A stretch of 61,126 nt of DNA, counting the filler. It is 8 parts of 8 records of this genome, joined end to end, with 100 filler letters (N's around TTAATTAATTAA, not from the genome) between each part and the next. Parts side by side here need not be neighbours in the genome. Positions count along the whole stretch, not along the records: positions 33,453 to 43,862 come from SRR31147125_16192; 7 more parts are not named here. One strand, 5' to 3'. A program made the position numbers and the translations under genes. Within the stretch, counting starts at the first letter, position 1; each line of letters begins with the position of its first letter. The notes under the pieces are model-generated. The model was not told the origin of the DNA. It searched no databases and saw nothing but the letters and a program-made list of their open reading frames with translations. This document shows, in pieces, positions 6,017-55,588 of the stretch.

Positions 6017-6045
6017 AGTATAATACTGGAAATACTATTTGTCAA
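6017..6045 (-). promoter_or_regulatory. sigma70-type promoter of the DUF2975-HTH-DUF4153 operon
   Basis: TTGACA-N17-TATACT on minus strand ~35 nt upstream of the start codon. Confidence 0.7.
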
Positions 6046-6053
6046 TATAAATT

Positions 6054-6068
6054 TATCGAATATCGATA
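6054..6068. promoter_or_regulatory. palindromic operator candidate
   Basis: TATCG-AATAT-CGATA just upstream of the -35 box; weaker copy at 6075-6090. Confidence 0.45.
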
Positions 6069-6227
6069 TATTTATATCGCAAAAGCGAAATTAGATTTAA
6101 GGAAGAAAGATTATTAAATAGAATGTTTAATAAAAACACCACACAGCTTCAAAATTATTGAACTGCATGGTGCATTTGTAAAACCAAATTTGATACCGGT
6201 ATTAATTTGTATATTCAATGTATGGTT

Positions 6228-7850: not shown

Positions 7851-7860
7851 CACTGACCTC

Positions 7861-8588: not shown

Positions 8589-8986
8589 TATTTTAAATCC
8601 TTTTTGCTTTTTTCGCAGATATCCAAGAGTTCTTGGTGATTATATTTCAAAAATTCATCAGGTCTTACGCTTCTATCATCAACGTAGAATCCTTTTTTTT
8701 CTGGCCACGGTTTACCGTATATTATTTCATCATATTCGATTTCCCATTTATCCAACCACTTTAAAAGTACTTTAGCAGTGTTTGCATTAATAAGCCCAAT
8801 CTGACCGTTGTGGGTTCTCATATTTCTTGCAGTAAAAAGAACAATTTTTGCGCCTTCTTCTTTGTACTCGTGTATCTTTTCTACCATATTTTTGTATGGA
8901 ATAAGGTCAGCATATTCCTCGTTTGGCTTTTTGATTGGACACAGAGTGCCATCTATATCAATAACCAATTTTACTTTTTCAAGCAT
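8588..8986 (-). CDS. HAD-superfamily capsule-biosynthesis phosphatase (EcbF/BcbF-like)
   Basis: DIDGTL, LFTARNM, YGKPW, FYVDDRSVRP motifs. Confidence 0.88.
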   Translation of the reverse strand: MLEKVKLVIDIDGTLCPIKKPNEEYADLIPYKNMVEKIHEYKEEGAKIVLFTARNMRTHNGQIGLINANTAKVLLKWLDKWEIEYDEIIYGKPWPEKKGFYVDDRSVRPDEFLKYNHQELLDICEKSKKDLK

Positions 8987-10418: not shown

Positions 10419-10420
10419 AA

Positions 10421-11316
10421 TTATATTGTTTTTACCTTTTTATTTATATTTTTTGTTACATTATATATCATAAGCAAAATAAACAAAACAAGAGCTAGTA
10501 TAACATAATATACTAAGTTATGAGCGTTTTTAAAAGCGAAAGCATCGTTTACGAATTTTACCAATATTCCAATTCCGGAATTTGCAGAAATCATCTTTGA
10601 TATTAAGAACAAAACTGTAAAATCTAAACACCAACTAATTACGGACAAAAACATTATTGGGAATGCTCTTTTATGAACAAGGTATTTTTCCGACTTATAA
10701 AGATTGTTGCAGTTATCTAAAAACCTAAGCATATTGTTTGATTTTTTGATAATCGTTTGAAAAACCAATGATTATTAAAATATAAATATAGCGAAGGAAA
10801 AATGGAGTATAAAAATAACATAGATATTAGAAAAACAAATATTATAATGCTAAGCATAGAAATTGAGTTATTGAATATTTGATAAGGCACAACAAACAAA
10901 AGCAATACAAGTGAATCGAAAAATCTATCGGTAAGTAAGACTAACAAAGCAGATTTGAAATTTTTAACCTTTTCATTTAGAGCAAAAAGTCTATAAATTT
11001 CTCCTAACTTATAGGGTATTACAATATTTACGAAAGTTGTTTTAATATAAAAAGGTATAAGATTGTTAAATCTTATATTCATTTCTATCATTATCAAATA
11101 TAATCTTATAAGCTTTACAAAATGCGTCAGTATAAAGGCTATAAATATTAAAAACATAAAAAGAATGTTAATCTTTAAACTTATAAATTCTATATTACTA
11201 GCTATATAGTAATACGAAAAATATAATGCAATGATTAATACTATTGTATTGATCATGAAAAATATAGATTTACGTATATTTGCGTCTTTATTCTGCTTTT
11301 TATACATACTCATCAA
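10421..11316 (-). CDS. lysylphosphatidylglycerol-synthase TM region (UPF0104, flippase-like) protein, frameshifted near 10765
   Basis: FVNIVIPYKLGEIYR and DRFFD motifs; two overlapping ORFs (10717-11316, 10421-10768). Confidence 0.65.
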
Positions 11317-11885
11317 AGGCTTTCTCTCTAAAATCGGATTCGATAAACTTTCTACCCTTAAAGATATATTTCAAAACCATTCCAAGTACAAAAAACGCTT
11401 GGCTGAATAATTTAACGTTTGATACTTGATCTTCTTCAGACCACGTTATAGGAAAAACTTCGAACTCTGTTTGTACGAGTGAAGAGCAAGAATCATAGCA
11501 TAATTAAAAGTAAGATTATCTGGGAATTTAAAGTAATACTTTGATTTCAACATTTGGACTGAATACATATTTAATCCAGAGCCCAAATCTCGAATATAAA
11601 CACGAGTTGCAATTGAAAATAATAAGTTATAAACTCTATTGCCGAAAGTTCTAAATTTAGAATATCCTGGCCTTTTGAACGCTTCATAAACCTAGAACCA
11701 AGAAGACAATCATAGTCTTCATATGATTTACTTTCTAATATAGGTAAGATATCATTGATATCACCTTGGTCGTCTCCATGTAAGACTATGACATAATCGA
11801 ATCCTTCGTCAATCGCTTTTTTAAACGCGACTTTATGGGACCCGCCAAGTCCATAGTTGTTTTTGTTTGTATGAAGCTTAATTTT
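11300..11885 (-). CDS. GT2 glycosyltransferase (DPM1/polyprenol-phosphate glycosyltransferase-like), 5'-partial, frameshifted
   Basis: Manual minus-strand translation: NNYGLGGSHKVAF, VLHGDDQGD, LLGSRFM, RTFGNRVYN, DLGSGLN, PITWSEEDQVSNVK; absent from ORF track. Confidence 0.8.
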
Positions 11886-11985
11886 NNNNNNNNNNNNNNN
11901 NNNNNNNNNNNNNNNNNNNNNNNNNNNNNTTAATTAATTAANNNNNNNNNNNNNNNNNNNNNNNNNNNNNNNNNNNNNNNNNNNN
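11886..11985. other. artificial contig spacer
   Basis: N44-TTAATTAATTAA-N44; composition changes across it. Confidence 0.97.
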
Positions 11986-18611: not shown

Positions 18612-19562
18612 TCAGGACTGCATATATCTGGAATGCAGCTTTTCATATCCGTTTTTAAAGAAGGGACACACCCGTATGCAAACAGAACAACCCATAGATT
18701 TTGAAAACGGTACCGCGCATTTTTTATAGTCGATGTAGATTGGACTTCCATCTTCCGCCAGGGGCTTCTCCGCATAGATAGCTTCTCCCGGACACTCGCG
18801 CATACAGACCCCGCAGTCAGAACAGAACTGTTCAATCCAGGAATGGCAGTTTTGATTATTCGTCCTGATTGGAAGATTCTCTATACTGGTATACACCACC
18901 GCTATTCTTTGACTCGGACCATTTTCAGGTGAAATCAGCAACCCATGTCTACCCATCCATCCCAATCCCGCTTTTTGCGCCAATAGCGGATAATTCACAT
19001 CTCCACCAAGCGCGGCACCTGCCTGTGCTCCAAATCCATTGCCGCGCAAATAGTCTGCAATCTTGTTTGAAGCTCTACCTAATTCGGCATAAATCTTCCA
19101 GACCTCTTTACCGGCTGCTATTTTCGGGGCATGCGCCATACGCTTTTTATCCATGGGCATAGTCAGGACTATAGCATGTGAATAGAGAACATTTTTATCG
19201 GCAAAAAGATATGATTCAGAAACTTCGGTAAATCCGACAGCACTGCAGCCGAGATTTTTCGCATTTGTCTCTATACTATAAATAAATTGTTCTGTCGCTG
19301 CTTTTTTTGGGTTGTGCGGGATATTTCCCAGACTTCTATATCCAGAAAGACGGCCTTTGACTGACGGAATAAGCCAACGGGCAATACGAAATAATTTCAG
19401 GAAGTGGTGTTTTGGATTGCCGTAAGTGAAAATAAGTTCGGGAACAATAAGCCCCTTTCTCGATTCCTTACTGCTCTCCAGCAGCTTTATATTGTCAGGA
19501 ACATAATCTCTGGTTGTTTTTGAGAGCATGTTCTTTATTATGTTAATTTTCCTGCTTTTCAT
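18612..19562 (-). CDS. reductive dehalogenase/epoxyqueuosine-reductase-like Fe-S protein
   Basis: AQKAGLGWMGRHGLLISP..GP..R, FCSDCGVCMRECP and C..GCSVCIRVCP; no Tat leader. Confidence 0.75.
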   Translation of the reverse strand: MKSRKINIIKNMLSKTTRDYVPDNIKLLESSKESRKGLIVPELIFTYGNPKHHFLKLFRIARWLIPSVKGRLSGYRSLGNIPHNPKKAATEQFIYSIETNAKNLGCSAVGFTEVSESYLFADKNVLYSHAIVLTMPMDKKRMAHAPKIAAGKEVWKIYAELGRASNKIADYLRGNGFGAQAGAALGGDVNYPLLAQKAGLGWMGRHGLLISPENGPSQRIAVVYTSIENLPIRTNNQNCHSWIEQFCSDCGVCMRECPGEAIYAEKPLAEDGSPIYIDYKKCAVPFSKSMGCSVCIRVCPFFKNGYEKLHSRYMQS

Positions 19563-19843
19563 GCATAGACCTTTAACCCCTAATAGAGTCTGAGATTTTC
19601 CCACACTGTTTTGATCAGATTCTCTGGAAAATTCATGCCCATAGCAAGCCTTGGAATTTCAGCAAAAGTATCAGTTGTCTAATCAATAATTATATGGGTC
19701 TATCGGTTGATAATATTACATTACTGGCCGAATCCGATCAAATCATTCCTTTCAAAGCTACTATTTTTCTTAGTCAGCCAGTTCTGATGATTCCGAGTAA
19801 ATCGCCCTGTGAAAATCTCTGGTAAGTTGATATGGAGCTGCAG

Positions 19844-21538
19844 TTATTCCACCGTCACAGATTTGGCCAGATTGCGGGGCTGGTCCACATCCCGTCCAGC
19901 TCCAGCGCGCAGTAGAAAGCAAACAGCTGGGTAGGTACCACCATGAGAAATGGATACATGATATCCTCGGCATGCGGGATAAAGATCACATCATCGGCAA
20001 TCGCTTCTATTTCCTTATCTCCCTCAACGGCAACAGCTATCAATTTACCCTTCCGTGCCTTAACCTCTTTCATGTTCGTGATAACCTTGTCCTGAGTGCA
20101 TCGTCAGGAACCAGAAAAAAGCTGGGAGTAGTTTCATTTATAAGCGCAATCGGCCCGTGCTTTATCTCTGCCGCGCTGTATCCCTCGGCATGAATATAGG
20201 AAATTTCTTTCAGCTTCAAGGCCCCTTCCATGGCTACCGGGTAGTTCAGGCCGCGACCCAAAAACAAGAAGTTACTATATTTGTGATATATTCCAGCCAA
20301 CTCAGCAATCCTGGGTGCTGTTTCAAGAATCTTCTCAATTTGAGCAGGCAGTGCTTCCAGAGCACTGATAAACTCCAAACCATCCTCAATAGAAAGGTGA
20401 CGCATTCGCGCCAGACTAAGCGCCAGAATATAGAGTACGGTTAATTGTGATGTAAAGGCTTTCGTGGAAGCGACCGCAATTTCCGGACCCGAATGAAGAT
20501 AGACACCGCCGTCCGACTCCCTCGCTATAGTTGAACCAACAACATTGCAGAGACCCATGACCCGACCGCCCTTACGTTGGATTTCCCGCATGGCATAGAG
20601 CGAATCCGCTGTCTCTCCCGATTGGGATACAACAAAATAGAGGGTATCAGGCAGCACAACCGGATTTTTATACCGCAGTTCAGAAGAGAGCTCGGCATGA
20701 GCTGGAATCCTGGCGATACTTTCAATCAAATACGCACCGATCATTCCCGCGTGCCACGATGTGCCGGCTGCTATCACAATCACCCGGTTTACACCCAGCA
20801 GATCGCGCGGCTGCATATTCAGTCCGCCTAGATGACCGGTTGCCGAATCCCTGTTCAATCGTCCGCGGTAAGCCCGCTGAATAGATTCCACCTGTTCGTA
20901 TATCTCTTTCTGCATAAAATGGGTAAAGCCTTTCTTCTCAATCTGCTCCAGTTCCCACCCTATCTGCTCTACATGTTTCTGTATCAGTTTGTCATTAATA
21001 TCAAAGGTTCGGTAGCCATCCTTGGTCAGTGAGACAATCTCGCCGTCATTCAGGTATACGGCATCTTTTGTATACGCAAGGATTGCGGTAACATCTGAGG
21101 CCAGAAACATCTCGCCATCTCCCACTCCCAGAACCAGCGGAGAACCGTTTCTCGCGCCCACAATCTTGCCCGGTTCCGCGGTATGAACCACCGCAATTCC
21201 GTAGGTTCCCTTCAAAAGCGGAATCACTTCACGTACGGTATCTTCCAGATTTCCGCTGTAGTGTTTATCAATTAAGTAGGCTATTACTTCAGAATCGGTT
21301 TCGGTATGAAACGTGCTGCCGTCTTCTTCCAGTTCTCTGCGCAGATCCATGAAGTTTTCCACAATACCATTGTGTACAATAACGACATTTCCATACTCGC
21401 TGGCGTGCGGATGCGCATTCAGATCATTTACTTCGCCGTGTGTTGCCCAGCGGGTATGACCTATACCAAAAGCCCCCTGTACGGATTCATCCACAATTTC
21501 ACGCAAATTCCTGATCTTTCCGCGCTTTTTTATCAACG
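19844..21538 (-). CDS. glmS: glutamine-fructose-6-phosphate aminotransferase, 5'-partial, two 1-nt deletions (~20091, ~19896)
   Basis: GHTRWATHG, HNGIVEN, SQSGETAD, VASTKAF, EGALKLKEISY; C-terminal DVDQPRNLAKSVTVE restored by frame correction. Confidence 0.95.
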
Positions 21539-21638
21539 NNNNNNNNNNNNNNNNNNNNNNNNNNNNNNNNNNNNNNNNNNNNTTAATTAATTAANNNNNN
21601 NNNNNNNNNNNNNNNNNNNNNNNNNNNNNNNNNNNNNN
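21539..21638. other. artificial contig spacer
   Basis: N44-TTAATTAATTAA-N44. Confidence 0.97.
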
Positions 21639-21799
21639 TTTTTTTGTGCATTTCGTGTGTTTCGTGGTTTGTTTTGGGGAGAATTCCTGCGACATTAGCT
21701 TAATCTACGGTTCAGAAAAAAATATCCCATATATGCCATTGAAACGAATCACTTTGCACCTGAAGTAAGGATATTTTATTTTTATTTCGATTAACTTGA

Positions 21800-21891
21800 A
21801 ACCTCCCGGAGGTGGGAGATAACATTTCGTTACTTATCAATACTTTTAGAGTTTCCTCAAAATAGATAGCCGGAACCACCTCCGGGAGGTT
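21800..21891. repeat. REP-like inverted doublet (REPIN-like)
   Basis: Perfect 16-bp inverted repeat AACCTCCCGGAGGTGG / CCACCTCCGGGAGGTT 60 bp apart, each arm internally palindromic. Confidence 0.65.
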
Positions 21892-28024: not shown

Positions 28025-28124
28025 NNNNNNNNNNNNNNNNNNNNNNNNNNNNNNNNNNNNNNNNNNNNTTAATTAATTAANNNNNNNNNNNNNNNNNNNN
28101 NNNNNNNNNNNNNNNNNNNNNNNN
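28025..28124. other. artificial contig spacer
   Basis: N44-TTAATTAATTAA-N44. Confidence 0.97.
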
Positions 28125-33352: not shown

Positions 33353-33452
33353 NNNNNNNNNNNNNNNNNNNNNNNNNNNNNNNNNNNNNNNNNNNNTTAA
33401 TTAATTAANNNNNNNNNNNNNNNNNNNNNNNNNNNNNNNNNNNNNNNNNNNN
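33353..33452. other. artificial contig spacer
   Basis: N44-TTAATTAATTAA-N44. Confidence 0.97.
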
Positions 33453-33482
33453 CTGTTGTCTAAGTTCTGGGGTATATTATAA

Positions 33483-33920
33483 CAAGGTGCTAGAACCTTT
33501 GCTAATACTAATGATTGTTGAAATCCGACATACGAAAACGGTAAGAACAGTTTGCTAGATTTTCGGGGTGCTTCTGCTGAAAGAATTATAGAATCGAGTG
33601 GAAGCATACAGCTTAATTATACTGGTCTAAGTACCGATAGTGAAACCATAACTGTTACGCCTTCTTCTATGACTGTTTCAGCAAGTTTAGTTGATTCTGG
33701 TGATGGTATTTTTTGTTCAATTTCTTCTGATGGTTCTAATTATTCAACTTCTTTGAGTTCTGTTAGTGCTGATAGTTCCGGTGATTGGACTTTATACGCT
33801 AAAGCAGCAAAGTTTGATAATACTAGCGGTAATAGAACAATGAAGATTAGATTAGTAGATGATAGTAACAGTTCAAATACGTTAGATGTAAACGTATCAC
33901 AAATGACTGCACCAACATAA
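33483..33920 (+). CDS. Ser/Thr-rich phage-like protein, probably extending upstream through TGA 33519-33521; true start not resolved
   Basis: ORF 33552-33920 has only a TTG start; frame extends as QGARTFANTNDC-[TGA]-NPTYENGKNSLLDFRG; in-frame TAA at 33480 near the contig edge. Confidence 0.55.
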
Positions 33921-33934
33921 GCAAACCTTACAAA

Positions 33935-34210
33935 ATGAATATTGATTCAAATAAATTATTTGACACGTTTTTTAGACTTGCACCGTTAATAATAGCTATT
34001 CTTATTTATTGATTTGGAGTAGTTAAAAACAACGAAAACACCAGAACAGAGCTAGTAAACGTAAAAGCACAAATTGAAATATTAAATGCTAAATGTGAAA
34101 AACTGGAAGATAAGAAAGCAGACCTTTACACTATTGAGATTATTATGAACACACTTGATAGAATTGATAACAAGATTGATAAATTACAGGAACAAATAAA
34201 CGATAAATAA
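33935..34210 (+). CDS. 91-aa single-TM plus coiled-coil protein (holin/spanin-like), TGA at codon 26 read as Trp
   Basis: MNIDSNKLFDTFFRLAPLIIAILIY-[TGA 34010-34012]-FGVVKNNENTRTELVNVKAQIEILNAKCEKLEDKKADLYTIEIIMNTLDRIDNKIDKLQEQINDK-TAA; AAAATG start 14 nt after previous stop. Confidence 0.75.
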
Positions 34211-34211
34211 A

Positions 34212-34520
34212 ATGGAAATTAATAAGACAGGATATGAACAAATAAAAAAGTCAGGGTATAAAACGCACTCTGAAAATGGTAATCACTATTACAATTGAGA
34301 AGATGGAGCAGCCCCAAATGGTAAATATTACGGTTTTATAGTAACAGGTGAAAATGTTGTTATAGATTCTATAACTTATTTAGACCCTACACTGCATACA
34401 GGCGACATTAAAAACATAACGATGCTTTATGGATTGTATATCCCAATTTCAGGCGGATTTTCTACAATAACTTTATCAAGCGGTAATTTGATTTTACTAA
34501 AGGATATTGACGTACTATAA
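34212..34520 (+). CDS. 102-aa phage-like hypothetical protein, TGA at codon 29 read as Trp
   Basis: MEINKTGYEQIKKSGYKTHSENGNHYYN-[TGA 34296-34298]-EDGAAPNGKYYGFIVTGENVVIDSITYLDPTLHTGDIKNITMLYGLYIPISGGFSTITLSSGNLILLKDIDVL-TAA; starts 1 nt after previous stop. Confidence 0.75.
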
Positions 34521-34526
34521 AATTAG

Positions 34527-34559
34527 AAGGTGCTAAGACTTAGTTTTAGTGCCTTTTTT
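34527..34559 (+). terminator. intrinsic terminator of the phage-like operon
   Basis: AAGGTGCTAAGAC / GTTTTAGTGCCTT 13-bp stem whose three G-U pairs only work on the + strand, then T-tract, 6 nt after TAA 34520. Confidence 0.8.
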
Positions 34560-34661
34560 AGTGTTATATGTTAAGCAGAGAGAAGAAGGTACTTAATACT
34601 TCAAATAAATTTGATTTCTATTCAGTTCATATTCAGGTTGTTAAATAATAACATTTGAAAA

Positions 34662-34681
34662 GGTGTTTATATATACGCACC
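34662..34681. other. candidate attachment (attL/attR) site
   Basis: Imperfect palindrome GGTGTTTATATATACGCACC (16/20 symmetric) exactly at the premature stop of the host beta-propeller gene. Confidence 0.6.
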
Positions 34682-35692
34682 GCCGCGTTTTATACTCCAA
34701 ACAATATGCTCATTCGAGGTTTCTTTTTCACCAAGTGTGATATCGCCCCGGGCATCAGTTTTTACCGCATAAATGGGTGAATATGTGCCGTGGGCATTGT
34801 TTATGAAAATCAGGTCGTGAGCTATAACAGGAGTTGGTGTTGGTACGTCTCCACCGCCACTCATCTTCCAAATTTCCTTTCCGGTTTCAAAATCGTATCC
34901 GCCCATGTGGTGCCAGCCATTTACAACAATCTGCATTTTCCCGTCTTTTTCAAATACGGTTGGCGAACTCCATGTCGATACATCTTCACGGGGAGTTTTC
35001 CATATCTCCTCTCCGGTTTTAATATCGTACGCAGCAATAAAACAATCGCCTAAAAAGTCGCACTGTACAATTACTTTTTCATTATGAATAATTGGCGAGC
35101 TTGAAAATCCCCATTCCAATTCGGGAGCATTATACGGGCCGGCATTCATTTTGCCAAAATCTTTGGTCCAAAGTAATTCTCCGTTCATGTTGTAACAAAA
35201 CAATCCCTGCGAGCCGAAAAAGGCAACCAGATATTTTCCATCGGTTGCCGGAGTTCCGTCGGCGTGCGATGCTTTTGTGTGGCGTTTTACTTCAGGTACA
35301 CTTTTCGTGGCCAGTTTTTCCCAAAGAATTTCGCCTGTATTTTTATCGAGGCAAAATACCTTAAATTCATGAATTGATTCATCTTCAACAGCATCGCCGT
35401 CGCCGTATAATCCAACTTTCAGGTAGTCGTTTCCGGTTCCGCTAATGGCTGTTGTTATAAACATTTTATCTTCCCAAATTACCGGAGAAGAATGTCCAAG
35501 CCCGGGAATAGAAGTTTGCCATAAAATATTCTCCCCGCTTTCAATATCCCACTCGCTCACGGTTTTGGCATCTTCAACAAAACCTTTGGCAAATGGGCCA
35601 CGAAAAGATGGCCACTGTTTTAAATAATTGGTTTGAGCTGATAATTGAAAGCAGAATAAAAGTGATAGGATTAATGGAAATAGATTTTTCAT
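34667..35692 (-). pseudogene. PQQ-binding-like (BamB-type) beta-propeller protein, apparently C-terminally truncated
   Basis: Signal peptide, WPSFRGP, HSSPVIW, TGEILW/TGEEIW/TGKEIW repeats; ends abruptly at WSIKRGGAYI at the start of a blade. Confidence 0.75.
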
Positions 35693-35850
35693 TGCTGTTA
35701 TGATTATGGCTCTTAAAGATAGGCAATTAGGAAGAAATTATCACCGTAAAATTGTTGTTGATGCGTAATTGCCCTTCACTACCCTTAACAGGCTTTGAGA
35801 AAATAAAAAATGGTTCATCATTTTCTTTATTGATTAGGTTATAATTTAAT

Positions 35851-35968
35851 ATCCATTGCCGTTGCGCTTTAGCCAACGGATTAAGGAAATATATCTCCCC
35901 TTCAATAATTTACGGGGCTAAAAGCCCCGCAAATTATTAACTGAATTCTCCTAATATAACGGCAAATG
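35851..35968. repeat. REP-like palindromic cluster
   Basis: CCGTTGCGCTTTAGCCAACGG hairpin and 16-bp stem AATAATTTACGGGGCT / AGCCCCGCAAATTATT (35904-35938). Confidence 0.5.
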
Positions 35969-35989
35969 ATAAACTATATTTATAGCCTA

Positions 35990-37004
35990 TTACAACGACT
36001 TACGCCGAATAAACTCAAACGGGCTTTTTATGCGTTTAAAATCTTTGGTTAAAATCATTTCGGCAGCAATTCGGCCAATTTCGTTGTGGTTGGTAGAAAT
36101 GGTTGTAATACCATCTTCCAGAATTTCTTTTACCGGATTATCGTTATAGGCAACCACTCCAACATCGGTACCTGCTTTCCAATGCTTTTCTTTGCAAATT
36201 TTTATGAAACGATAAAGATCGTCGTCGGAAATAAGTACATAGGCCTGGTTTTGTTTTACATCTGTATCTTCCAGTTGGTTAATTACCGAAAATTTCAGTT
36301 CGTTTATCTGGCAGAAAATCTGAAATCCACGCATAATGTTTTTCGAATAATATTGGCTTGTGGGAAAAACCAGGTTCAACGATTCGTATTTTCGAATATC
36401 CTCAATTCCCTCGTTTAATGCAGTTTGAATATCTTTTTCGAATTACATGGTAAACAACCGGATAATCTTTTAAAACATCGAGATTACGATCGATAAGCAA
36501 TACTTTCTCCTGGGGAATGCGCTTAATCACCTCAATTACATCAATATTTTTATCGTTAAACTGTGGAAGAATTGCGTAGTAATCGTAATTGGAAATCTGG
36601 TCATCTATTATCTCTTCAAACTTCTCGGTGCCGTAGTTGTAAATAAAAACATCTACACGGGCTTTATTTCCGAGTGTTTCAATAAACGAATAGTAGATGC
36701 TACGTTTGTAATTGCTAAGCTTGTTAAAAATAAGCGCTACTTTAATTTTCTTTCCAACATTGCTTTTATTTACGTAGTATCCTTTACCCCGAACCGACGA
36801 AAGCACACCCTTTTTCTTAAGGTAAACATAAGCCTTTTCAACCGTGTCTCTCGATAAAAAAAGTTCTTCGCTGGTTTCGTTAATGGAAGGAACACGCTGC
36901 CCTTTTTTAAAGATTCCTGCTTCAATATCAGAGAGAATCAGGTTTACAACCTGTTTGTACTTTGGTATCTCCGATTCGTGATTTATGCGAATATCTTCAT
37001 TCAT
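35990..37004 (-). CDS. GntR-family regulator with LacI-type sensor domain, frameshift near 36445
   Basis: PKYKQV, PSINE, SRDTVEKAY, GKGYY; shifted frame continues FEKDIQTAL...YNDNPVKEIL..GITTIST. Confidence 0.85.
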
Positions 37005-37010
37005 TCCCTT

Positions 37011-38918
37011 TTATTTTTCGATAATTTTTATGGTCGTTCTACGGTTAAGGCGCTTTCCTTCTTCCGTGTCGTTTCCTGCTACAGGTAAGGTATCTCCGTA
37101 TCCTTCAAAGCTAAGGCGAGCACCTGCAATTCCGTTTTCAACAAGATAATCGACTACCGACTTTGCCCTCAGTTTCGATAGTTCGAGGTTACTTTCAGTA
37201 TCACCAGAGCTATCAGTATGTCCTTGAATTTCAACTTTTAAATGACTGTTATGTTGCATAAACGAGACCAAAGTTTGCAATTCAGGTTCCGATTCAGGCA
37301 AAATTGTAAACGAGTCGGTTTCGAAATAAATGTTGTATAAATCCATTTCGGCTCCAACCTCAATTGGCTCAAGCAGAATATCGAGAATAAACGGATCGGT
37401 TAGCGAATTTTCGTCGGCCAACTGAATAGATTTTGAATAAAACAAATAGCCATCTTCCGATACATTAAATGCATAATTTGTTCCGTACGGCAACGACAGC
37501 ATAATTTGGCCATTCTCGTCGGCTTTTTCGTTACGCGGTTCTGCGTTGCTGGTATTTAAATTTATTAATTCGATATTTGCTAAAACGGGCTGAGCAGTTT
37601 TTTTGTTACGAACCGTTGCTTTTACATAAGTTACCGGGCGTGGTTTTAAACCTCGTGTAAGATTAAACGAAAATATATCGAGGCCTTTTTCGCCTTCGCG
37701 CGCCGACGAGAAATAAGCAACATCGCCAATGGAGCTCACCGTTAATCCCATATCATCTTTATGGGTATTTATAGGATATCCCATATTCTTCAGCTTTGCC
37801 ACCGCTCCGTATTCATCTATTATTGCCGAAAATAAATCGAGGCCGCCCATTCCGATATGTGTATCCGATGCAAAATAAAAATTCTGGTTATTTGCATGAA
37901 TAAACGGAGATATTTCGTCGCCCGAAGTATTTATTGCATCCAAATTTTCAGGTGTTTTCCATTTGGGTTTTCCGTCTTCGGTAAAACCCGAAAATTCAAC
38001 ACGCCAAATGTCTTTTTTCCCTTTTCCTCCTTCGCGGTTACTCGAAAAATATAAATAACGGTTATCGGAAGAAAAAGAAGGTTGTCCTTCCCAGGAAGAA
38101 GTATTCAGCGGAGCTCCGGCGTTTTGTGGCTCAGTCCAGCGCTCGTCAATAAAACGTGAGAAATAAATATCGCAACTTCCCAAACCATCGTTACGGTTAC
38201 ATGCAGTAAAAAACAAAATTTTCGAATCGGCCGATAAAGTCTGTGCCCCTTCGTTTTCGGGAGTATTCACCTCACTCAGCGGTTCGGCATTTTCCCAGTT
38301 AAACGAATCCAGTTCAGCCATAAAAAAATCTTCCTGCGGGCGCCTGCCGTCTTTCATTAAACGGGTAAAAACCAAATGTTTTCCGTCGAGAGTTGGAGTA
38401 GGCCAATACTCATCGTTAAAACTATTTATTTCGTCGCCTAAATTTACCGGATTAAATTCTACAGGATTTTGAATACTGTTAATGGCAAACTTGCAATTCG
38501 CCATTTTACAGGCAAGAAGAAATTGTCGCTTCTCAGGAATATTTTTCTCAACTTTATATTTCTCGTAAAAACTAAGTGCTTCGGAATACATTCCCAACTT
38601 AAAGAAAGCCTCGCCCAACCTAAAATCTATTAAGGGATTTTTTACAGTATCAACAACTTTGGTCAGATGCTTAATTTCCAGGCGGGTTGAGTCCATATCT
38701 TTATACATTTCGGCCAGCAAAAGGTGGGCATTTGAATAACCTTTATCCTTATTCAGAATATCGTTACAAACGTCTATTGCCTTTTTATAATTATCGGACG
38801 AATAATAAGTTTTTGCTTCGTTAAACAGCTTTTCCGAACGCTTTTTTTCCTGCGCTACAGATTCGAAAATAAGAAACAAACTAACAAACAAAAGTAAAAA
38901 GCACTTAACTCTATTCAT
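37011..38918 (-). CDS. OmpA-family protein with TPR and PD40 repeats
   Basis: N-terminal TPR, GSCDIY/GGLDLF PD40 repeats, IQGHTD...LSKLRAKSV...LNRR OmpA domain. Confidence 0.9.
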   Translation of the reverse strand: MNRVKCFLLLFVSLFLIFESVAQEKKRSEKLFNEAKTYYSSDNYKKAIDVCNDILNKDKGYSNAHLLLAEMYKDMDSTRLEIKHLTKVVDTVKNPLIDFRLGEAFFKLGMYSEALSFYEKYKVEKNIPEKRQFLLACKMANCKFAINSIQNPVEFNPVNLGDEINSFNDEYWPTPTLDGKHLVFTRLMKDGRRPQEDFFMAELDSFNWENAEPLSEVNTPENEGAQTLSADSKILFFTACNRNDGLGSCDIYFSRFIDERWTEPQNAGAPLNTSSWEGQPSFSSDNRYLYFSSNREGGKGKKDIWRVEFSGFTEDGKPKWKTPENLDAINTSGDEISPFIHANNQNFYFASDTHIGMGGLDLFSAIIDEYGAVAKLKNMGYPINTHKDDMGLTVSSIGDVAYFSSAREGEKGLDIFSFNLTRGLKPRPVTYVKATVRNKKTAQPVLANIELINLNTSNAEPRNEKADENGQIMLSLPYGTNYAFNVSEDGYLFYSKSIQLADENSLTDPFILDILLEPIEVGAEMDLYNIYFETDSFTILPESEPELQTLVSFMQHNSHLKVEIQGHTDSSGDTESNLELSKLRAKSVVDYLVENGIAGARLSFEGYGDTLPVAGNDTEEGKRLNRRTTIKIIEK

Positions 38919-39065
38919 AGTCAATACATTAAAAAAAATCTTTGCTCTAATATCCTTTAGTCTTCAAAATTAACAAACGATTGACATGTTGTATTTATTT
39001 TTTTCCTATTTTGCTTAAATAAATTTTTAACCTTTTATCAATAACTACATTTTTTTGCTGTTACG

Positions 39066-39251
39066 ATGAAAAAGAAAGTTTACAAGACCCGTACCCCCGA
39101 GTTGGATAAATTTGACAGGAAACAAAAAAAACACACCAGCTCACGCAACAAAAGTTCAAAACAAAAATTATCGATTTACGATGAGTTTGAAGACGAAGAT
39201 TTAATGAGTTATTCTTCGGGATTTGAAGACTCCGACTACCTGGAAGAATAA
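39066..39251 (+). CDS. small hypothetical protein, basic N-half and acidic C-half
   Basis: 61-aa ORF filling an intergenic gap. Confidence 0.55.
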   Translation: MKKKVYKTRTPELDKFDRKQKKHTSSRNKSSKQKLSIYDEFEDEDLMSYSSGFEDSDYLEE

Positions 39252-39301
39252 TCCATTTCCATATTTATTTTTGAAATTCTGCTTATCAGAGGAGGCAGAA
39301 A

Positions 39302-39784
39302 CTATTCATAAAATGCCTCAATTCCGGGGTACTGATAGCGTGCTTTGGCAATTTTTTCAGGAAAAACAAAGTACGACACGGTTGCTTTGGCGCATTCTTC
39401 ACCGTCTCCATCTAATAATGAGGCACTTATTTTGGCAATTCTCCCATCAACCGATTCCAATTTACCACGAATGGTAAGTTCTCCTTTTTTTACTTTTACC
39501 GCCTTTAGGTATTGTACCTGCAAGTCGCTGGTTACACCGGCAGTTTTAAGTTTTATCATCACAACCCAACCACCAATTTCGTCGAGCAGGGTTGCCTGAA
39601 TACCACCGTGCAAAACGCCAATCCAACCTTCGTACTTCTGGTCGGGGGTCCACTTTGTTACAATTTCGTCGCCATCTTCCCAAAAATCGAGTTTTAACCC
39701 ACCTTCATTATAAGGCGAGCAGGCAAAACAGTTATAATCTCCAATATTTTTTGGGTCTTCCCAGGGATTTATTATTTTTTTCAT
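39302..39784 (-). CDS. PaaI-family thioesterase
   Basis: CFACSP.N..GLKL, LHGGIQATLLDE. Confidence 0.9.
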   Translation of the reverse strand: MKKIINPWEDPKNIGDYNCFACSPYNEGGLKLDFWEDGDEIVTKWTPDQKYEGWIGVLHGGIQATLLDEIGGWVVMIKLKTAGVTSDLQVQYLKAVKVKKGELTIRGKLESVDGRIAKISASLLDGDGEECAKATVSYFVFPEKIAKARYQYPGIEAFYE

Positions 39785-39937
39785 CTTAATAAAATATTTT
39801 TGTTTCAGCTCTATTTCCCCTGTCGCTTCTTCGAAGCTCCTGTCTCTGGGTAGGGGGACAATCGGCACGAAATGACGTTAGGGAGAGAATAAGCACCTTC
39901 AGAATATGATAATAAGGACTAAATTACTCCAAAAACA

Positions 39938-39965
39938 AAACGAGCCGGTAAAAACCGGCTCGTTT
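39938..39965 (-). terminator. intrinsic terminator
   Basis: Perfect AAACGAGCCGGT / ACCGGCTCGTTT stem after the SPFH gene. Confidence 0.75.
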
Positions 39966-39986
39966 ATAATATTTATTTAACTAATG

Positions 39987-40814
39987 TTAATTATTTCCAA
40001 GAATTAGCGGCAGTCCGTCTTTTCCGCTACCTATAACAACAACTTTCGAATTTGGCGATTCGGCCAGCGAAGTAGTTGCCTCAATACCACGTTGTTTCAA
40101 AATTTTATCCGTTAAACTGGCATTAATAATGCGGTTGTAATTGGCAATACCTTCTGCTTCAATTCTACGACGTTCAGCTTCCGAAGTTTCCTTTGTAAGC
40201 CTGTATTGGTAAGCTAATGATTCCTGTTCTTGTTTCAATTTACTTTCAATTGCATTTTTAATCTGTTCGGGTAAATTAATTGAACGAATTAGCAAAGCTT
40301 TCATTTGAATATAATTTTGACCTAATACTTCGCGTGTTTCGTCAATAATTGCCTTTTCAACTTCGGCACGTTTTGTAGAGTAAATTTCCTCGGCAGTATA
40401 ACGTCCGGCAACCTGTCGTACTGTTGAACGCACTTCGGGAATAACCAAAACATTTATATAATTTATACCAAACTGCTCGTACAAATAACCAATTTCGTTA
40501 AAAATAGGGTTAAAACGAACGGTAATATCCACACTTATCGAAAGACCACTTTTATCAAGCACATCCATCGGTTCGTCGCGTTGTTGTTCGCGCACACTGT
40601 AAGTATACATTTTATTCCATGGCGCAATTACATGAAACCCTTCACCATATATATTATCCTTATCTAATCCAGAGGTGTATGGTTTAAAGAGAACTCCTCT
40701 TTCCCCTGCATCGAGAATTAAAAACATACGACCACCAAACAGTAGCACAACTAATACTGCAACAATTGCAATTACTATGTAAGTCGATTTAAAATTAAAT
40801 TTCATGTCTGTCAT
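39987..40814 (-). CDS. prohibitin/SPFH domain protein
   Basis: GERGVLF, EGFHVIAPWN, EAERRRIEAEG, GLPLIL; TACATTTG -7 box at 40832-40839. Confidence 0.92.
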   Translation of the reverse strand: MTDMKFNFKSTYIVIAIVAVLVVLLFGGRMFLILDAGERGVLFKPYTSGLDKDNIYGEGFHVIAPWNKMYTYSVREQQRDEPMDVLDKSGLSISVDITVRFNPIFNEIGYLYEQFGINYINVLVIPEVRSTVRQVAGRYTAEEIYSTKRAEVEKAIIDETREVLGQNYIQMKALLIRSINLPEQIKNAIESKLKQEQESLAYQYRLTKETSEAERRRIEAEGIANYNRIINASLTDKILKQRGIEATTSLAESPNSKVVVIGSGKDGLPLILGNN

Positions 40815-40949
40815 TTTTTTATGATTTTAGACAAATGTACAAAGTTTACGGCCTATAAATAAGCTAAAATTATGTTTTCTTTGAATTCATCGGTGAGTTC
40901 CATCTTTTTTACGGTAGATTATTATTTTTGATTTTAAAAATGAATTGAC

Positions 40950-42065
40950 ATGAAGAAAATTTTATTTCTGTTTATTGCCTTATTTGTTGTTGCGAGTTCG
41001 TTTGCACAAAACTTTTTTAATACCGATTTCAACAAACATAAAAAGTATGTGATTTTGTGCAATCCAACTGTAAACCGCATAAAAACTATCCGGTACCTTA
41101 CGGATTCCGACATACTTAAAGTAAAAAAGAAAATAAAATTTGTTGGTGTTTATTACGAAGGTGAAAAGCAAGATTACAGCAAAACCAAGGATTATATTGA
41201 AGAACAGAATCTCGAGAATTTCTTTTTGCACGAAATAAAGGGCGAATTAAACGCAACAAACCTTTACGAGAAAAACGACGTTTCGGAGCAATTAGAAAAG
41301 GTTTTTGATAATTCAATTGGAGTTTTCTTTTTTGGTGGAGCCGATATTCCTCCGGCAATTTATGGCGAAGAAAATACAAAATCGGCAATTTACACACCTG
41401 CCCGCCACTATTACGAAGCTACATTTATGTACCATTTGCTGGGTGGTTTTCAGGATAAAAATTTTAAACCATTTTTAGAAGAGCGCCCCGATTATATGGT
41501 AACCGGCTTTTGTTTAGGCATGCAAACCATGAATATTGCTTCCGGCGGAACACTAATTCAGGATATTCCGGCAGAGATTTATAATGCTGACACGCCCGAA
41601 GAAACAGTGAAAATTGGAAGAACAAACATGCACCGAAACTATTGGCAAAAGATTGAAAAAGATACTTTATTAATGGGCATAAACCTGCATACTATAAACT
41701 TTACCGACCACCCATTTTTTGGGAAGGCGGTTGATGTTTCGAAAAAAGCAACACCACGAATTTACAGCAGCCACCACCAGGCTGTAGAAAAACTTGGAAA
41801 AGGATTGGAAGTTACTGCTCTTTCGCCCGATGGAAAGATTATTGAAGCCATTGCACATAATAAATATAAAAATGTATTTGCTGTGCAGTTTCACCCCGAG
41901 GTTTCGGCCCTTTACGAAGATATGTATGTTCGGAAATTTCACCCGGACGATGAGCCTAAATCCTACAACGACATTATTGGTAATTCAAGCCTTCGTTTTC
42001 ACGAAGAATACTGGGGCTACATTTCGGATGTTTTGAAAAAGGTAAAGAAGCCTAAAGAAAAATAA
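40950..42065 (+). CDS. peptidase C26 / gamma-glutamyl-GABA hydrolase family
   Basis: GGADI, GFCLGMQ, SSHHQAV, VQFHPE; signal peptide. Confidence 0.88.
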   Translation: MKKILFLFIALFVVASSFAQNFFNTDFNKHKKYVILCNPTVNRIKTIRYLTDSDILKVKKKIKFVGVYYEGEKQDYSKTKDYIEEQNLENFFLHEIKGELNATNLYEKNDVSEQLEKVFDNSIGVFFFGGADIPPAIYGEENTKSAIYTPARHYYEATFMYHLLGGFQDKNFKPFLEERPDYMVTGFCLGMQTMNIASGGTLIQDIPAEIYNADTPEETVKIGRTNMHRNYWQKIEKDTLLMGINLHTINFTDHPFFGKAVDVSKKATPRIYSSHHQAVEKLGKGLEVTALSPDGKIIEAIAHNKYKNVFAVQFHPEVSALYEDMYVRKFHPDDEPKSYNDIIGNSSLRFHEEYWGYISDVLKKVKKPKEK

Positions 42066-42262
42066 TAAAATGCAATAGGAATTTCCATAATAGGTCATAT
42101 ACGTTATTAAATCGTCAGACTGAGAGTTCGTATATATTTTTTTTTGGGGGGGGCACAATGGACAAGTAACAGAGAAATAGCGCCTCTGGGAAAACACTTT
42201 TGTGGTTGAAAAAATATTACAGTGAATATAAAATATACCGCCCGGCCAATGCATGTCCGTAA

Positions 42263-42290
42263 GCCCTTAGGAGTTCCAACTCCTTAGGGC
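42263..42290. repeat. palindrome (REP-like or terminator)
   Basis: GCCCTTAGGAGTT-CC-AACTCCTTAGGGC between convergent genes. Confidence 0.45.
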
Positions 42291-42309
42291 ATAACTAAAC
42301 CACTATGCA

Positions 42310-43605
42310 TTATTCCGAAAACTTAAACCAGTCTATCGCAAGATTGCTTTCCTGAATTCCTGTAAATCTCAGGTACACATCGTGTTTTCCACTTAATGTT
42401 TTCACTTTGCATTTTACGGTTTTGTAGTCTTTTGTACCCGGAAACGAAACTGCTCCCACAATTTCACCATCTGGGCTATCGAGCCTGATTTCTATTTTAG
42501 CATATTTCCCACCGCCTCGCAGATTGGCAACAAAATCAGTAAGTTCCTCATCGAAATTAACATTGGCAAAGCGTAACCAACTGCCGTCAGTAATATTCAT
42601 GACTTCAAAACCATCGGCATTCGATTGTTTTTCCAACTCTGATGATTTCTCGTAAAACCACTCTGCCTCAATTTTATCCCACGACGCATTGTATCCGCCA
42701 ACACCATATTCAAAATGCTCATCTAAAAACCGGGTATCGGTTACAATTTTCCCTTTATTATCAAAGTGGCAGTAGGTAATTATCGTTTCGCGGTATTTAT
42801 AGCCCGGTCTGATGTAATAACACCAAATATGATAAAATTGTCCTTTCCACCGGAAGAAACTACCGTGGGCAAACTCACTTAAATTGTGTCCGTTACCAAC
42901 AGCTCCCACACATTGGTACGGTCCATAAATATTTTTCGAAATGGCATAATCTCTTCCCCAACTCAGGTAATACATTCCCTTGTGTTTAAAAATGTAATTC
43001 TTATCCATCCACACCGGAGCGTCATCCCATTCCTTTCCATTTATTATAATTGGCTTGGGAGCATGAGCCAACTCAATCATATTCTTTTTTAGCCTGGCAA
43101 TATGATAACCGCCACCTTCTTTATCGCCATAAACCAAATACTGCGTTTGTTTCTTATCATCGTCGGTTAAAATGGTTGGATCGTGCATTGGAGCTACCAA
43201 TGGTTTTCCCAGCGCATCTTTGTATGGCCCGGCCGGATGGTCGGCTTGCATAACACCTATTCCGCGTTTTCTGTCGGAAAAATAAAAATAGTATTTCCCG
43301 GTTCGTGTTGCAGCATCCGAAGCCCAGCAATCAGTACTGTTATTGTCCATGTAATTATCCCGGGGCGATATGCTTCCAACCTTTTTCCAGTTTACCAAAT
43401 CGGTGGTCGAGAATATTTGCCAATCGGGCATCACCCAGGTTTTATCGTCGGGATTACTATCGTGACCTGTAAACAAGTACACTGTATCGTTAAAAATCCT
43501 GACGTGCGGATCGGACATGCCCACATCTTTTACAATTGGATTTTGTGCTGAAGAAAAAACACTGAAAAAAAGAAGTGTAACTATGATTAAACAAATTGCT
43601 TTCAT
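42310..43605 (-). CDS. GH43 glycoside hydrolase with C-terminal CBM6
   Basis: SDPH, STTDLVNW, CWA, GPYKDALGKPL, HDP; IEAE...IEIRLDSPDG...GKHDVYLRF...IDWFKF. Confidence 0.9.
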   Translation of the reverse strand: MKAICLIIVTLLFFSVFSSAQNPIVKDVGMSDPHVRIFNDTVYLFTGHDSNPDDKTWVMPDWQIFSTTDLVNWKKVGSISPRDNYMDNNSTDCWASDAATRTGKYYFYFSDRKRGIGVMQADHPAGPYKDALGKPLVAPMHDPTILTDDDKKQTQYLVYGDKEGGGYHIARLKKNMIELAHAPKPIIINGKEWDDAPVWMDKNYIFKHKGMYYLSWGRDYAISKNIYGPYQCVGAVGNGHNLSEFAHGSFFRWKGQFYHIWCYYIRPGYKYRETIITYCHFDNKGKIVTDTRFLDEHFEYGVGGYNASWDKIEAEWFYEKSSELEKQSNADGFEVMNITDGSWLRFANVNFDEELTDFVANLRGGGKYAKIEIRLDSPDGEIVGAVSFPGTKDYKTVKCKVKTLSGKHDVYLRFTGIQESNLAIDWFKFSE

Positions 43606-43793
43606 TTTTGACTTTAAGTTGATTTCGTTGAATACATTACCTTACAAACATAATGATATAAACGTATTGAGCCTAACTGCTTTTATAGAAAGTATGCCGC
43701 TAATCCAGGTACGCTTCAATTTCTATTACATTAAAAAATATCTTGCTATGCGATTCTTTCCCCAGTAAACCTTTCAGTTTAAACTTCTTTCCT

Positions 43794-43801
43794 TACTTTT
43801 G
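43794..43801 (+). promoter_or_regulatory. Bacteroidota -7 promoter element
   Basis: TACTTTTG matches TAnnTTTG upstream of the prfC-like start. Confidence 0.55.
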
Positions 43802-43826
43802 CGCCGCAATTTAAAGAAGCAATAAA

Positions 43827-43862
43827 ATGACTTTTCTGGAAGAAATACAACGCCGACGCACA
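43827..43862 (+). CDS. prfC: N-terminus of peptide chain release factor 3 (12 codons only)
   Basis: MTFLEEIQRRRT resembles the RF3 N-terminus preceding the G1 box; cut by contig end. Confidence 0.55.
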
Positions 43863-43962
43863 NNNNNNNNNNNNNNNNNNNNNNNNNNNNNNNNNNNNNN
43901 NNNNNNTTAATTAATTAANNNNNNNNNNNNNNNNNNNNNNNNNNNNNNNNNNNNNNNNNNNN
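43863..43962. other. artificial contig spacer
   Basis: N44-TTAATTAATTAA-N44. Confidence 0.97.
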
Positions 43963-49065: not shown

Positions 49066-49165
49066 NNNNNNNNNNNNNNNNNNNNNNNNNNNNNNNNNNN
49101 NNNNNNNNNTTAATTAATTAANNNNNNNNNNNNNNNNNNNNNNNNNNNNNNNNNNNNNNNNNNNN
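49066..49165. other. artificial contig spacer
   Basis: N44-TTAATTAATTAA-N44. Confidence 0.97.
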
Positions 49166-55488: not shown

Positions 55489-55588
55489 NNNNNNNNNNNN
55501 NNNNNNNNNNNNNNNNNNNNNNNNNNNNNNNNTTAATTAATTAANNNNNNNNNNNNNNNNNNNNNNNNNNNNNNNNNNNNNNNNNNNN
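55489..55588. other. artificial contig spacer
   Basis: N44-TTAATTAATTAA-N44. Confidence 0.97.

Follow-up and report, generated by a model that had tools for sequence, protein, structure and literature searches.

A phage segment with TGA as a probable tryptophan codon beside standard-code genes of a Draconibacterium-like bacterium, and its sister prophages

Recoded prophages in hosts of the standard code are already documented, and the deeply analysed examples in the published accounts are TAG-recoded gut phages, among which the Garnet and Topaz prophages reside in standard-code Prevotella and Oscillospiraceae hosts, as described by Borges et al. (bioRxiv 10.1101/2021.08.26.457843). Recoding of TGA to tryptophan is exemplified by crAss-like phages (PMC7886860), and a TGA suppressor tRNA was reported to be detectable in only 35% of the TGA-to-Trp recoded gut phage genomes (bioRxiv 10.1101/2021.08.26.457843). 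In the main accounts of this literature the hosts of TGA-recoded phages are predicted and not fixed by junctions, and the supplementary tables of the same papers may list TGA-recoded prophages. The code-25 prophages of Gracilibacteria and Absconditabacteria are described as sharing their host's own code, in which TGA is read as glycine (PMC10746230).

The window considered here, that is the whole stretch of DNA that was analysed (61,126 nt, filler included), holds at 33453-34560 what we take, with a probability of roughly 0.85, to be the distal end of an integrated temperate tailed phage whose late genes read TGA as tryptophan, in a standard-code Draconibacterium-like (Prolixibacteraceae) host, in support of the original prediction that the late genes of a temperate phage end here. 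Sister prophages were found in two further assemblies: a complete one of ~24 kb in another Prolixibacteraceae genome (G185, contig G185:C109), and an element collinear with it in G041. Like Garnet and Topaz as described in the above account, these are temperate tailed phages of small size (~24 kb) that reside in hosts of the standard code, with fragmented code-11 gene calls, a GC shift at the prophage borders and, in G185 and G041, an integrase free of the recoded stop. Unlike them, the present lineage recodes TGA (Trp) instead of TAG (Gln), has Prolixibacteraceae hosts in place of gut taxa, carries no tRNA in the element, and uses large serine recombinases with insertion in protein-coding genes (tag, aldo/keto reductase) and not next to tRNA genes. 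With the TGA-to-Trp gut phages, as far as they are characterized in the same literature, it shares TGA at Trp positions, enriched in genes for structure and lysis, and TAA and TAG as sole stops; whereas the hosts of those phages were predicted on the basis of taxonomic profiles and CRISPR spacers, here junctions in three assemblies tie the lineage to one family with cultured members, and for one sister prophage, a complete one, the host bin can be searched for a decoder. Dense in-frame TGA is also a feature of the code-25 prophages (PMC10746230), but the present host stops at TGA (RF2 in G185) and TGA aligns with Trp, never with Gly.

The window is not one contig but is composed of eight, with GC from 0.30 to 0.59, separated by seven identical spacers (Table 1), and the contig holding the segment spans 33453-43862 (10,410 bp). 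Since 33453 is the first base of this contig, the operon lies at its extreme end and not inside it, as had been claimed. Only 1.1 kb of this phage is present on the contig, and its integrase lies outside those 1.1 kb. None of the other contigs in the window encodes a protein of the G185 prophage, and their ORFs gave no match to what lies past the PQQ gene in six relatives. By our reading, the phage would have integrated beside the PQQ beta-propeller gene, and the segment would comprise a tail-end ORF, a lysis-type protein with transmembrane (TM) helix and coiled coil, and a small conserved beta-sandwich protein.

Table 1. Features of the segment and its surroundings (positions along the window)
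Feature	Coordinates	Strand	Remark
Artificial contig-join spacer (N44-TTAATTAATTAA-N44)	33353..33452	.	Seven identical spacers split the stretch
Contig start, assembly-graph branch node with in-frame TAA 33480-33482	33453..33482	+	Second Logan contig
Ser/Thr/Asn-rich ORF, in-frame TGA 33519-33521	33483..33920	+	Without PHROG or Pfam family
P0001, 91 aa, putative lysis-type membrane protein	33935..34210	+	TGA = codon 26, 34010-34012
P0002, 102 aa, last prophage gene, function unknown	34212..34520	+	TGA = codon 29, 34296-34298
Terminator-like hairpin then T-run, closes the phage operon	34525..34557	+	Analogue in G185 after the P0002 homologue
Phage-host junction region	34558..34666	.	GC ~0.30 to ~0.43 across the region
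PQQ-type beta-propeller, first host gene, TAA stop	34667..35692	-	Syntenic with Draconibacterium, Maribellus

Under code 11, positions 33921-34560 contain no ORF of at least 40 aa, and the emptiness noted originally is therefore confirmed, as is the appearance of two complete genes (P0001 and P0002) when TGA is taken as sense. Coverage of 33453-34560 by ORFs of at least 80 aa is 36% under code 11, rises to 94% if TGA is sense and stays at 36% if TAG is; in the host part of the same contig coverage moves from 90% to 91% with TGA as sense. On G185:C109 the corresponding values for ORFs of at least 300 aa are 19%, 64% and 19%; TAG as sense thus leaves coverage unchanged in both cases, and the recoded codon is TGA. 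The AAAATG starts of both genes, the gaps of 14 nt and 1 nt and the TAA stops in 3/3 genes of the segment were found as described, and a terminator-like hairpin does follow the last TAA on the + strand, at a distance of 4 nt and not of the 6 nt claimed. ORF statistics by themselves carry only moderate strength: when 33935-34520 was shuffled 5000 times, the longest TAA/TAG-free run was matched in 350 cases, and two runs of at least 85 codons on one strand were obtained in 75, so that the reality of the two genes rests on homology. As a practical matter for annotation, code-11 gene calling makes such prophage ends seem empty or pseudogene-like.

P0001, as read from its sequence, begins with a transmembrane helix at the N-terminus and continues as a coiled coil; it has five database homologues (P0004-P0008). 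The TGA column is occupied by W in 3/3 full-length homologues (P0004-P0006; seen at the protein level, where the codon may be TGG or a code-4-read TGA), and the two others are 63-aa calls that start at a Val three codons past the column, as expected if a stop is also present there in their contigs. The context IAILIY*FGVV had been judged to fit tryptophan, in agreement with these homologues, and the codon is predicted to encode the Trp of a conserved LIYWFGVV motif. In the homologue on G185:C109, 56% identical in amino acids, the aligned codon is likewise TGA (TAT TGA TTT GG). Profile matches to phrog_739 (Rz-type i-spanins; E 3.4e-4, residues 16-88), weak and perhaps due to coiled-coil composition, and to phrog_1009 (unknown function; E 8e-5) allow a weak assignment of P0001 as putatively Rz/i-spanin-like or holin-like. 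It resembles the Rz-type i-spanins of phrog_739 in the N-terminal helix, the coiled coil and a place at the late operon's lysis end, and differs from them in having no recognised partner outer-membrane lipoprotein (o-spanin): neither an o-spanin lipoprotein nor an endolysin was recognised adjoining P0001, and P0002 carries no lipobox. No match to P0001 or P0002 was obtained by tblastn in 50,697 phage records, and no relatives emerged when IMG/VR was scanned with the three proteins or alignments A1 and A3, nor from GTDB genome contigs and JGI metagenome contigs with alignment A1. A degenerate DNA pattern for L-I-Y-(TGA/TGG)-F-G-V-V occurred in 16 stretches (2 viral, 14 metagenomic); by code-4 tblastn none was homologous to P0001, and they are therefore regarded as chance matches.

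P0002 is modelled as a small phage protein with a helix and a beta-sandwich; its nearest homologue is 62% identical and of equal length, and 34 family representatives align from 5' of the TGA. Homologues therefore align across both TGAs of the segment, which supports TGA as a sense codon there. The fold model places the first beta-strand (residues 24-28) ahead of the TGA, which falls in a variable loop after the strand. The column itself is variable and indel-prone, with S in the nearest homologue, mostly S/T/D/G or a gap in the others, and W in 1/27; the proposed fit of NHYYN*EDG to tryptophan was not borne out, and because of this variability we infer Trp at the P0002 codon only from the lineage. 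P0002 fell into neither a Pfam nor a PHROG family, and comparison of its fold with the PDB gave no match (best E 0.065, TM <=0.35).

The G185 prophage, with PHROG matches to TerL (7e-127), portal, protease, tape measure and tail fibre, contains 59 in-frame TGAs vs 17 TGG, the former in 20/25 non-integrase minus-strand genes, and 26/26 minus-strand genes stop at TAA or TAG; the collinear G041 element contains 33 TGAs. Both are clearly TGA-recoded, and in both, as in the two genes of the segment, in-frame TGA occurs within intact, conserved genes. The serine integrase of G185 has 0 TGA and 4 TGG, the counts outside it being 59 and 17 (p=0.0038 by Fisher's test), and the G041 recombinase has 0 TGA and 2 TGG.

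These data bear on the best surviving alternative, namely that the segment is a decaying prophage remnant and its TGAs arose by nonsense mutation, in P0001 from TGG, in genes whose expression has ceased. Between P0001 and its G185 homologue the same TGA is kept at a dS of 1.48, with synonymous sites near saturation, a dN of 0.34 and a dN/dS of ~0.23, which is difficult to reconcile with decay even though TGG to TGA is a single step and W opposite TGA would be expected for a nonsense mutation too. TGA represents 20-23% of the possible nonsense changes in the two genes, and the probability that both would be TGA is ~0.04-0.05. The S, T or G of homologues at the P0002 column, the failure to find a suppressor tRNA in the relatives and a frameshifted host regulator on the same contig, which indicates that broken genes or assembly errors occur, are compatible with a remnant; nonetheless the sister prophages, with dozens of TGAs, show neither the TAA/TAG interruptions nor the frameshifts by which ordinary decay was to be recognised. 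Overall we consider a remnant improbable, and late genes with TGA as Trp remain the preferred reading.

The host was predicted to be a standard-code, Prolixibacteraceae-like bacterium, and its genes agree: the OmpA-type protein has 71-77% identity to the top Draconibacterium and Maribellus loci with synteny kept, and the tryptophans of the beta-propeller (12), OmpA (6) and PaaI/4HBT (5) genes on the same contig are all TGG, with no in-frame TGA; the GH43 gene cited originally was not located. A misjoining of free phage or code-4/code-25 DNA to a Prolixibacteraceae contig, during assembly or binning, would nevertheless be suggested by the position of the segment at a contig end, the GC range of the bin (0.30-0.59), the low coverage and the graph branch at the start, where 33453-33482 (30 nt) are exactly common to a second Logan contig (1393 bp) that diverges straight after the TAA at 33480-33482. 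Such an artefact is very unlikely, as a 2,779-bp contig from a different assembler covers 33699-35400 with 0 differences and bridges phage and host at an identical junction, which speaks against a chimera; it also reproduces TGA, and not TGG, at 34010-34012 and 34296-34298, the read evidence being one run of ~6x depth that is possibly the source sample of the stretch and hence not independent data. Moreover, the two further assemblies join the lineage to a Prolixibacteraceae chromosome, and the integrases lack TGA, in keeping with their expression by a standard-code host. The host junction is seen on one side for the present segment, on both sides in G185, where the prophage splits the host tag gene and has one half of it at either end, and on the integrase side in G041, where the element adjoins a truncated host aldo/keto reductase gene. 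As to the attachment site, the phage ends of the segment and of the G185 prophage gave no alignment beyond the last gene.

The meaning of the codon was examined at TerL. Eight TGA columns, compared with four TerLs of the standard code from the same bacterial family, gave 32 cells, of which 28 were W, all encoded by TGG, 4 were Y and none was G, and at one column TGA in G185 alternates with TGG in G041. Against three cultured-phage TerLs the columns were W in 11/24, aromatic in 19/24 and G in 0/24, and in PDB 6z6d W was found at 3/7 aligned TGA positions and G at none. Readings in which TGA stands for glycine (code 25) or selenocysteine, or is passed by unspecific read-through, could draw on the small residues, G included, of some distant homologues at the P0002 column. 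They are the least credible of all, given 0/32 and 0/24 Gly at TerL, the alternation of TGA with TGG, the W of the P0001 column, the tRNA-Sec not found in the G185 assembly and the 59 TGAs of a single prophage, far above selenoprotein usage.

The gene preceding P0001 had been claimed to run through a third TGA, at 33519-33521. The frame is indeed open upstream of it, for 12 codons only, up to the in-frame TAA at 33480-33482, and no ATG, GTG or TTG occurs between the two; code-11 and TGA-sense calls of the gene are identical (33552-33920, TTG start at 33552). The gene may read through this TGA or start at TTG 33552; the Logan contigs of the second assembly leave 33518-33647 uncovered. The ORF occupies the place of the 332-aa gene that follows the tail fibre in the G185 prophage, and its PHROG and Pfam family searches, as well as a search for relatives, were empty.

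In the late genes of the lineage TGA would serve as a Trp codon, with termination at TAA or TAG alone. Following the model of Borges et al., the TGA-free lysogeny genes would be made under the standard code of the host, and TGA would block translation of the late and lysis genes until a code switch at induction. A suppressor tRNA-Trp(UCA) had been predicted elsewhere in the prophage, but none was present in either sister prophage region and none was found in the G185 host bin: ARAGORN and Rfam (E<=1) detected no tRNA in the complete G185 prophage, none was seen on the G041 contig or in the window, and of the 49 tRNA matches in the G185 assembly none had a UCA anticodon, its tRNA-Trp having the CCA anticodon only. 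A Hirsh-type feature of this tRNA-Trp was considered, and no claim is made on it because ARAGORN draws the D-stem with C:G as its 11:24 pair. The G185 genome encodes RF2 (prfB, 476 bits vs a cut-off of 370 bits).

Since neither sister prophage region contains a tRNA, the switch would most likely involve one of two putative agents: a trans-acting suppressor encoded elsewhere, or a factor from a TGA-free phage gene by which the host tRNA-Trp(CCA) would outcompete RF2 at UGA. As no decoder was found, it is conceivable that the prophages are non-functional. A speculative and rather doubtful proposal is that the lineage decodes UGA as Trp without a suppressor tRNA, the product of a TGA-free gene disabling or outcompeting RF2 or altering tRNA-Trp(CCA); such an alteration may, for example, concern the wobble base, so that the host tRNA reads UGA. 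If true, this would be a protein-driven, reversible switch of the genetic code of a cell upon induction, and the complete 24-kb G185 prophage would leave few candidates, namely its TGA-free ORFs at 19040-19459 (+), 19477-19719 (+) and 21355-21819 (-) and its late genes without TGA. Having no tRNA, release factor or aaRS in its 24 kb, and with RF2 present and tRNA-Trp(CCA) as the sole tRNA-Trp on the host side, G185 offers a small and well-bounded system for UGA decoding without a visible suppressor tRNA.

A P0001-like ORF of 29% identity, itself containing TGAs, was observed in the Bacteroidales genome G431, in a low-GC island, not clearly recoded, beside a tRNA-Met gene.

Reading TGA as sense restores the coding capacity of the segment 33453-34560. 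Under code 11 the stretch 33921-34560 contains zero ORFs of at least 40 aa, while two, P0001 and P0002, tile it once TGA is read as sense; their AAAATG starts, 14-nt and 1-nt gaps and TAA stops match the original description. ORFs of at least 80 aa cover 94% of 33453-34560 when TGA is sense, against 36% both under code 11 and when TAG is sense, and the cover of the rest of contig 33453-43862 is hardly altered by TGA as sense (90% vs. 91%). In DNA of 29% GC, however, the longest TAA/TAG-free run was equaled in 350 of 5000 shuffles and two same-strand runs of at least 85 codons occurred in 75 of 5000, and by themselves the ORF statistics persuade only moderately. A third TGA (33519-33521), proposed to be read through in the ORF preceding P0001, is only a candidate: the frame is open past it, but for 12 codons only, up to an in-frame TAA (33480-33482), with ATG, GTG, and TTG all absent in between. 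Code 11 and TGA-sense calls agree on this ORF (33552-33920); the first 30 nt of the contig are a graph-branch overlap shared with another contig, which diverges immediately after the TAA.

The locus had been placed inside one contig, a premise that has to be abandoned, since seven identical N44-TTAATTAATTAA-N44 linkers divide the 61-kb window into eight contigs and 33453 is base 1 of one of them (10,410 bp, 33453-43862); arguments based on the same contig are therefore valid only inside one segment. The GC values of the contigs (0.31, 0.46, 0.40, 0.37, 0.37, 0.59, 0.40, and 0.49; range 0.30-0.59) indicate a heterogeneous bin, which probably mixes organisms. No tRNA genes were found within the window.

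Features of the window and of related prophages (positions in the window unless a genome and contig are given)
Feature	Location	Strand	Remarks
Linkers	11886-11985, 21539-21638, 28025-28124, 33353-33452, 43863-43962, 49066-49165, 55489-55588		
P0001 ORF	33935-34210	+	91 aa; TGA = codon 26 at 34010-34012
P0002 ORF	34212-34520	+	102 aa; TGA = codon 29 at 34296-34298
Terminator-like hairpin	34525-34557	+	
G185 prophage	L085/L086 = G185:C109 ~1590-25666		in host tag gene, via large serine recombinase
G041 element	L167+L165+L166 = G041:C35 ~21.9-42.4 kb		second recoded prophage of the lineage
Standard-code prophage terminases	L161-L164 (G301, G191, G189, G179)		45-47% identical to the recoded ones, same bacterial family

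Sequence comparisons show that P0001 and P0002 are real genes spanning their TGAs. Five database homologues of P0001 were retrieved, three of them full length (88-90 aa; identity 61-69% by BLASTP and 59-69% in the alignment) and all three with Trp at the TGA column, within a conserved LIYWFGVV motif. The other two are 63-aa calls starting at a Val three codons 3' of that column, presumably code-11 calls on contigs that also have a stop there. P0001 consists of a transmembrane helix and a coiled coil, and its PHROG matches are weak (an unknown family, 8e-5; Rz-like spanins, 3.4e-4). P0002 has an equally long homologue, 62% identical, and belongs to a family of 34 representatives whose alignment begins well 5' of the TGA. 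The suggestion that the context of this second TGA fits Trp was not borne out, the column being variable and indel-prone: the nearest homologue has S, the others mostly have S, T, D, G or a gap, and W occurs in 1 of 27 homologues. In the AlphaFold model of P0002 (pLDDT 86), an N-terminal helix and a small beta-sandwich, the first strand lies before the TGA, at residues 24-28; the model resembles many uncharacterized proteins of 80-110 aa from uncultured tailed phages (TM ≤0.86 on target), and no solved structure resembling it was found.

When 335 genomes of the Draconibacterium family were searched in six frames, one of them (G185, contig C109) proved to hold homologues of both genes side by side. 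There the P0001 homologue (56% amino acid identity) has two in-frame TGAs, one of which lies at the same codon as in the window's gene (TAT TGA TTT GG) in protein and DNA alignments. With a dS of 1.48, which is near saturation, and a dN/dS of ~0.23, the TGA has persisted for longer than a nonsense mutation would in an otherwise intact gene. Recoding is plain on C109, a contig of 25,881 bp whose phage part has 30% GC: ORFs of at least 300 aa cover 64% of it when TGA is sense, against 19% both under code 11 and when TAG is sense, TGA occurs in 20 of its 25 non-integrase minus-strand genes (59 in-frame TGA vs. 17 TGG), and all 26 genes stop at TAA or TAG. PHROG matches include small and large terminase, portal, protease, adaptor, tape measure, and tail fibre. 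The left flank of the prophage holds a host TPR gene and tag (3-methyladenine glycosylase I; PF03352, 5e-72), at 46-48% GC, the latter cut at the phage border; its C-terminal remainder was found just past the recombinase at the opposite end, so that the prophage is complete on C109, at ~24 kb, and the crossover is apparently an AT core of 2 bp. Between its portal and terminase genes lies a GIY-YIG/HNH homing-endonuclease gene containing four TGAs; five more occur in a Dam-like methyltransferase gene. The window's contig 1-11885 has a phage-like GC (0.305), but code-11 ORFs cover it well, and none of the G185 prophage proteins showed similarity to it.

Searched with the terminase, the same 335 genomes gave matches in 10, among them G041, with a second recoded element (TerL 74% identical, seven TGAs), and four genomes with standard-code relatives containing zero stops. 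Up to ~22 kb, host sequence makes up the G041 contig; the element that follows is collinear with the G185 prophage, from a TGA-free serine recombinase adjoining a truncated host aldo/keto reductase to the contig end, inside a tail-fibre gene. Likewise, the tail-end region is where the window's contig starts. Tail-fibre genes seem to be the points at which assemblies of this lineage break, perhaps owing to strain variation in these genes. A more distant P0001-like ORF (29%; L156 12161-12601, G431:C8 ~552.2-552.6 kb) was seen in a Bacteroidales genome; it holds TGAs, one just past its transmembrane helix, in a low-GC island adjoining tRNA-Met that is not clearly recoded.

The terminases indicate which amino acid TGA specifies. 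When eight TGA columns are compared with the four standard-code TerLs from this bacterial family (32 cells), Trp occupies 28, all TGG, and Tyr four; one column is TGA in G185 and TGG in G041. Nine columns have Trp in every one of the four standard-code proteins, and at seven of these the recoded phages use TGA. Against three cultured-phage TerLs, Trp occurs in 11 of 24 cells and an aromatic residue in 19, and the solved terminase 6z6d has Trp at three of seven aligned positions. The central claim, TGA as Trp, is right for both complete genes. Code 25, which would place Gly at these columns, is excluded for the lineage (Gly in 0/32 and 0/24), as is selenocysteine. The standard-code and recoded terminases constitute a natural pair to date and trace the TGG-to-TGA switch.

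A suppressor tRNA that would decode UGA had been expected in the prophage, but none was found on the G041 contig, and ARAGORN and Rfam (E ≤ 1) found no tRNA in the complete G185 prophage. Of the 49 tRNA matches in the G185 assembly, one is tRNA-Trp(CCA), and none is a tRNA-Sec or has a UCA anticodon, although these assemblies are drafts and what is lacking in a bin is not necessarily lacking in the cell. Among the scanned G185 proteins (several small ORFs and the 19761-20444 methyltransferase excluded), none was recognized as a release factor, an aaRS or another code-switch factor. The decoder could be a suppressor encoded outside the bin, a non-canonical tRNA that was missed, or a tRNA-independent switch. 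The G185 integrase has no TGA and four TGG, compared with 59 TGA and 17 TGG elsewhere (p = 0.0038). TGA is likewise missing from four late genes, from two divergent plus-strand ORFs and from one small ORF that looks secreted.

Recoded prophages in standard-code hosts are already known, and the present lineage adds another. Borges et al. (bioRxiv 10.1101/2021.08.26.457843) describe ~24 kb recoded prophages in standard-code Prevotella and Oscillospiraceae, with integrases lacking the recoded stop, propose recoding as a lysis/lysogeny switch, and report a detectable suppressor tRNA in only 35% of TGA-recoded genomes; the two prophages analyzed there are, however, TAG-recoded, whereas this lineage is TGA-recoded. 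An infant-gut preprint mentions five temperate recoded phages, their codes not given in its accessible text, and in a cold-seep virome paper recoding was predicted by software, with only three TGA events. Prophages of Gracilibacteria and Absconditabacteria use code 25, as their hosts do (PMC10746230), while here the window's host genes encode Trp as TGG, with in-frame TGA absent, and RF2 is present in the G185 host (476 bits against a cut-off of 370). A literature search limited to main texts turned up no paper that explicitly reports a TGA-recoded prophage linked to a standard-code host from outside the gut, and no priority is claimed; the chief value lies in a small, complete, host-anchored sister prophage without a visible decoder.

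Beyond the phage segment, contig 33453-43862 carries genes for a PQQ beta-propeller, a GntR-type regulator, an OmpA/PD40 protein, a thioesterase and a Band-7 protein, in the gene order of Draconibacterium and Maribellus, with the OmpA-type protein 71-77% identical to the top loci of these genera. A 2,779-bp contig built by a second assembler from one public DNA run (~6x) spans 33699-35400 with zero differences, reproducing both TGAs and the phage-host junction; the run is possibly the sample of the window's own assembly, and the data do not count as independent. The GntR-type regulator with a periplasmic-binding domain (35990-37004, minus strand), either a frameshifted pseudogene or a low-depth assembly error, occupies two different frames (36402-37004 and 35990-36379), both parts lying in a single frame in the Draconibacterium and Maribellus relatives.
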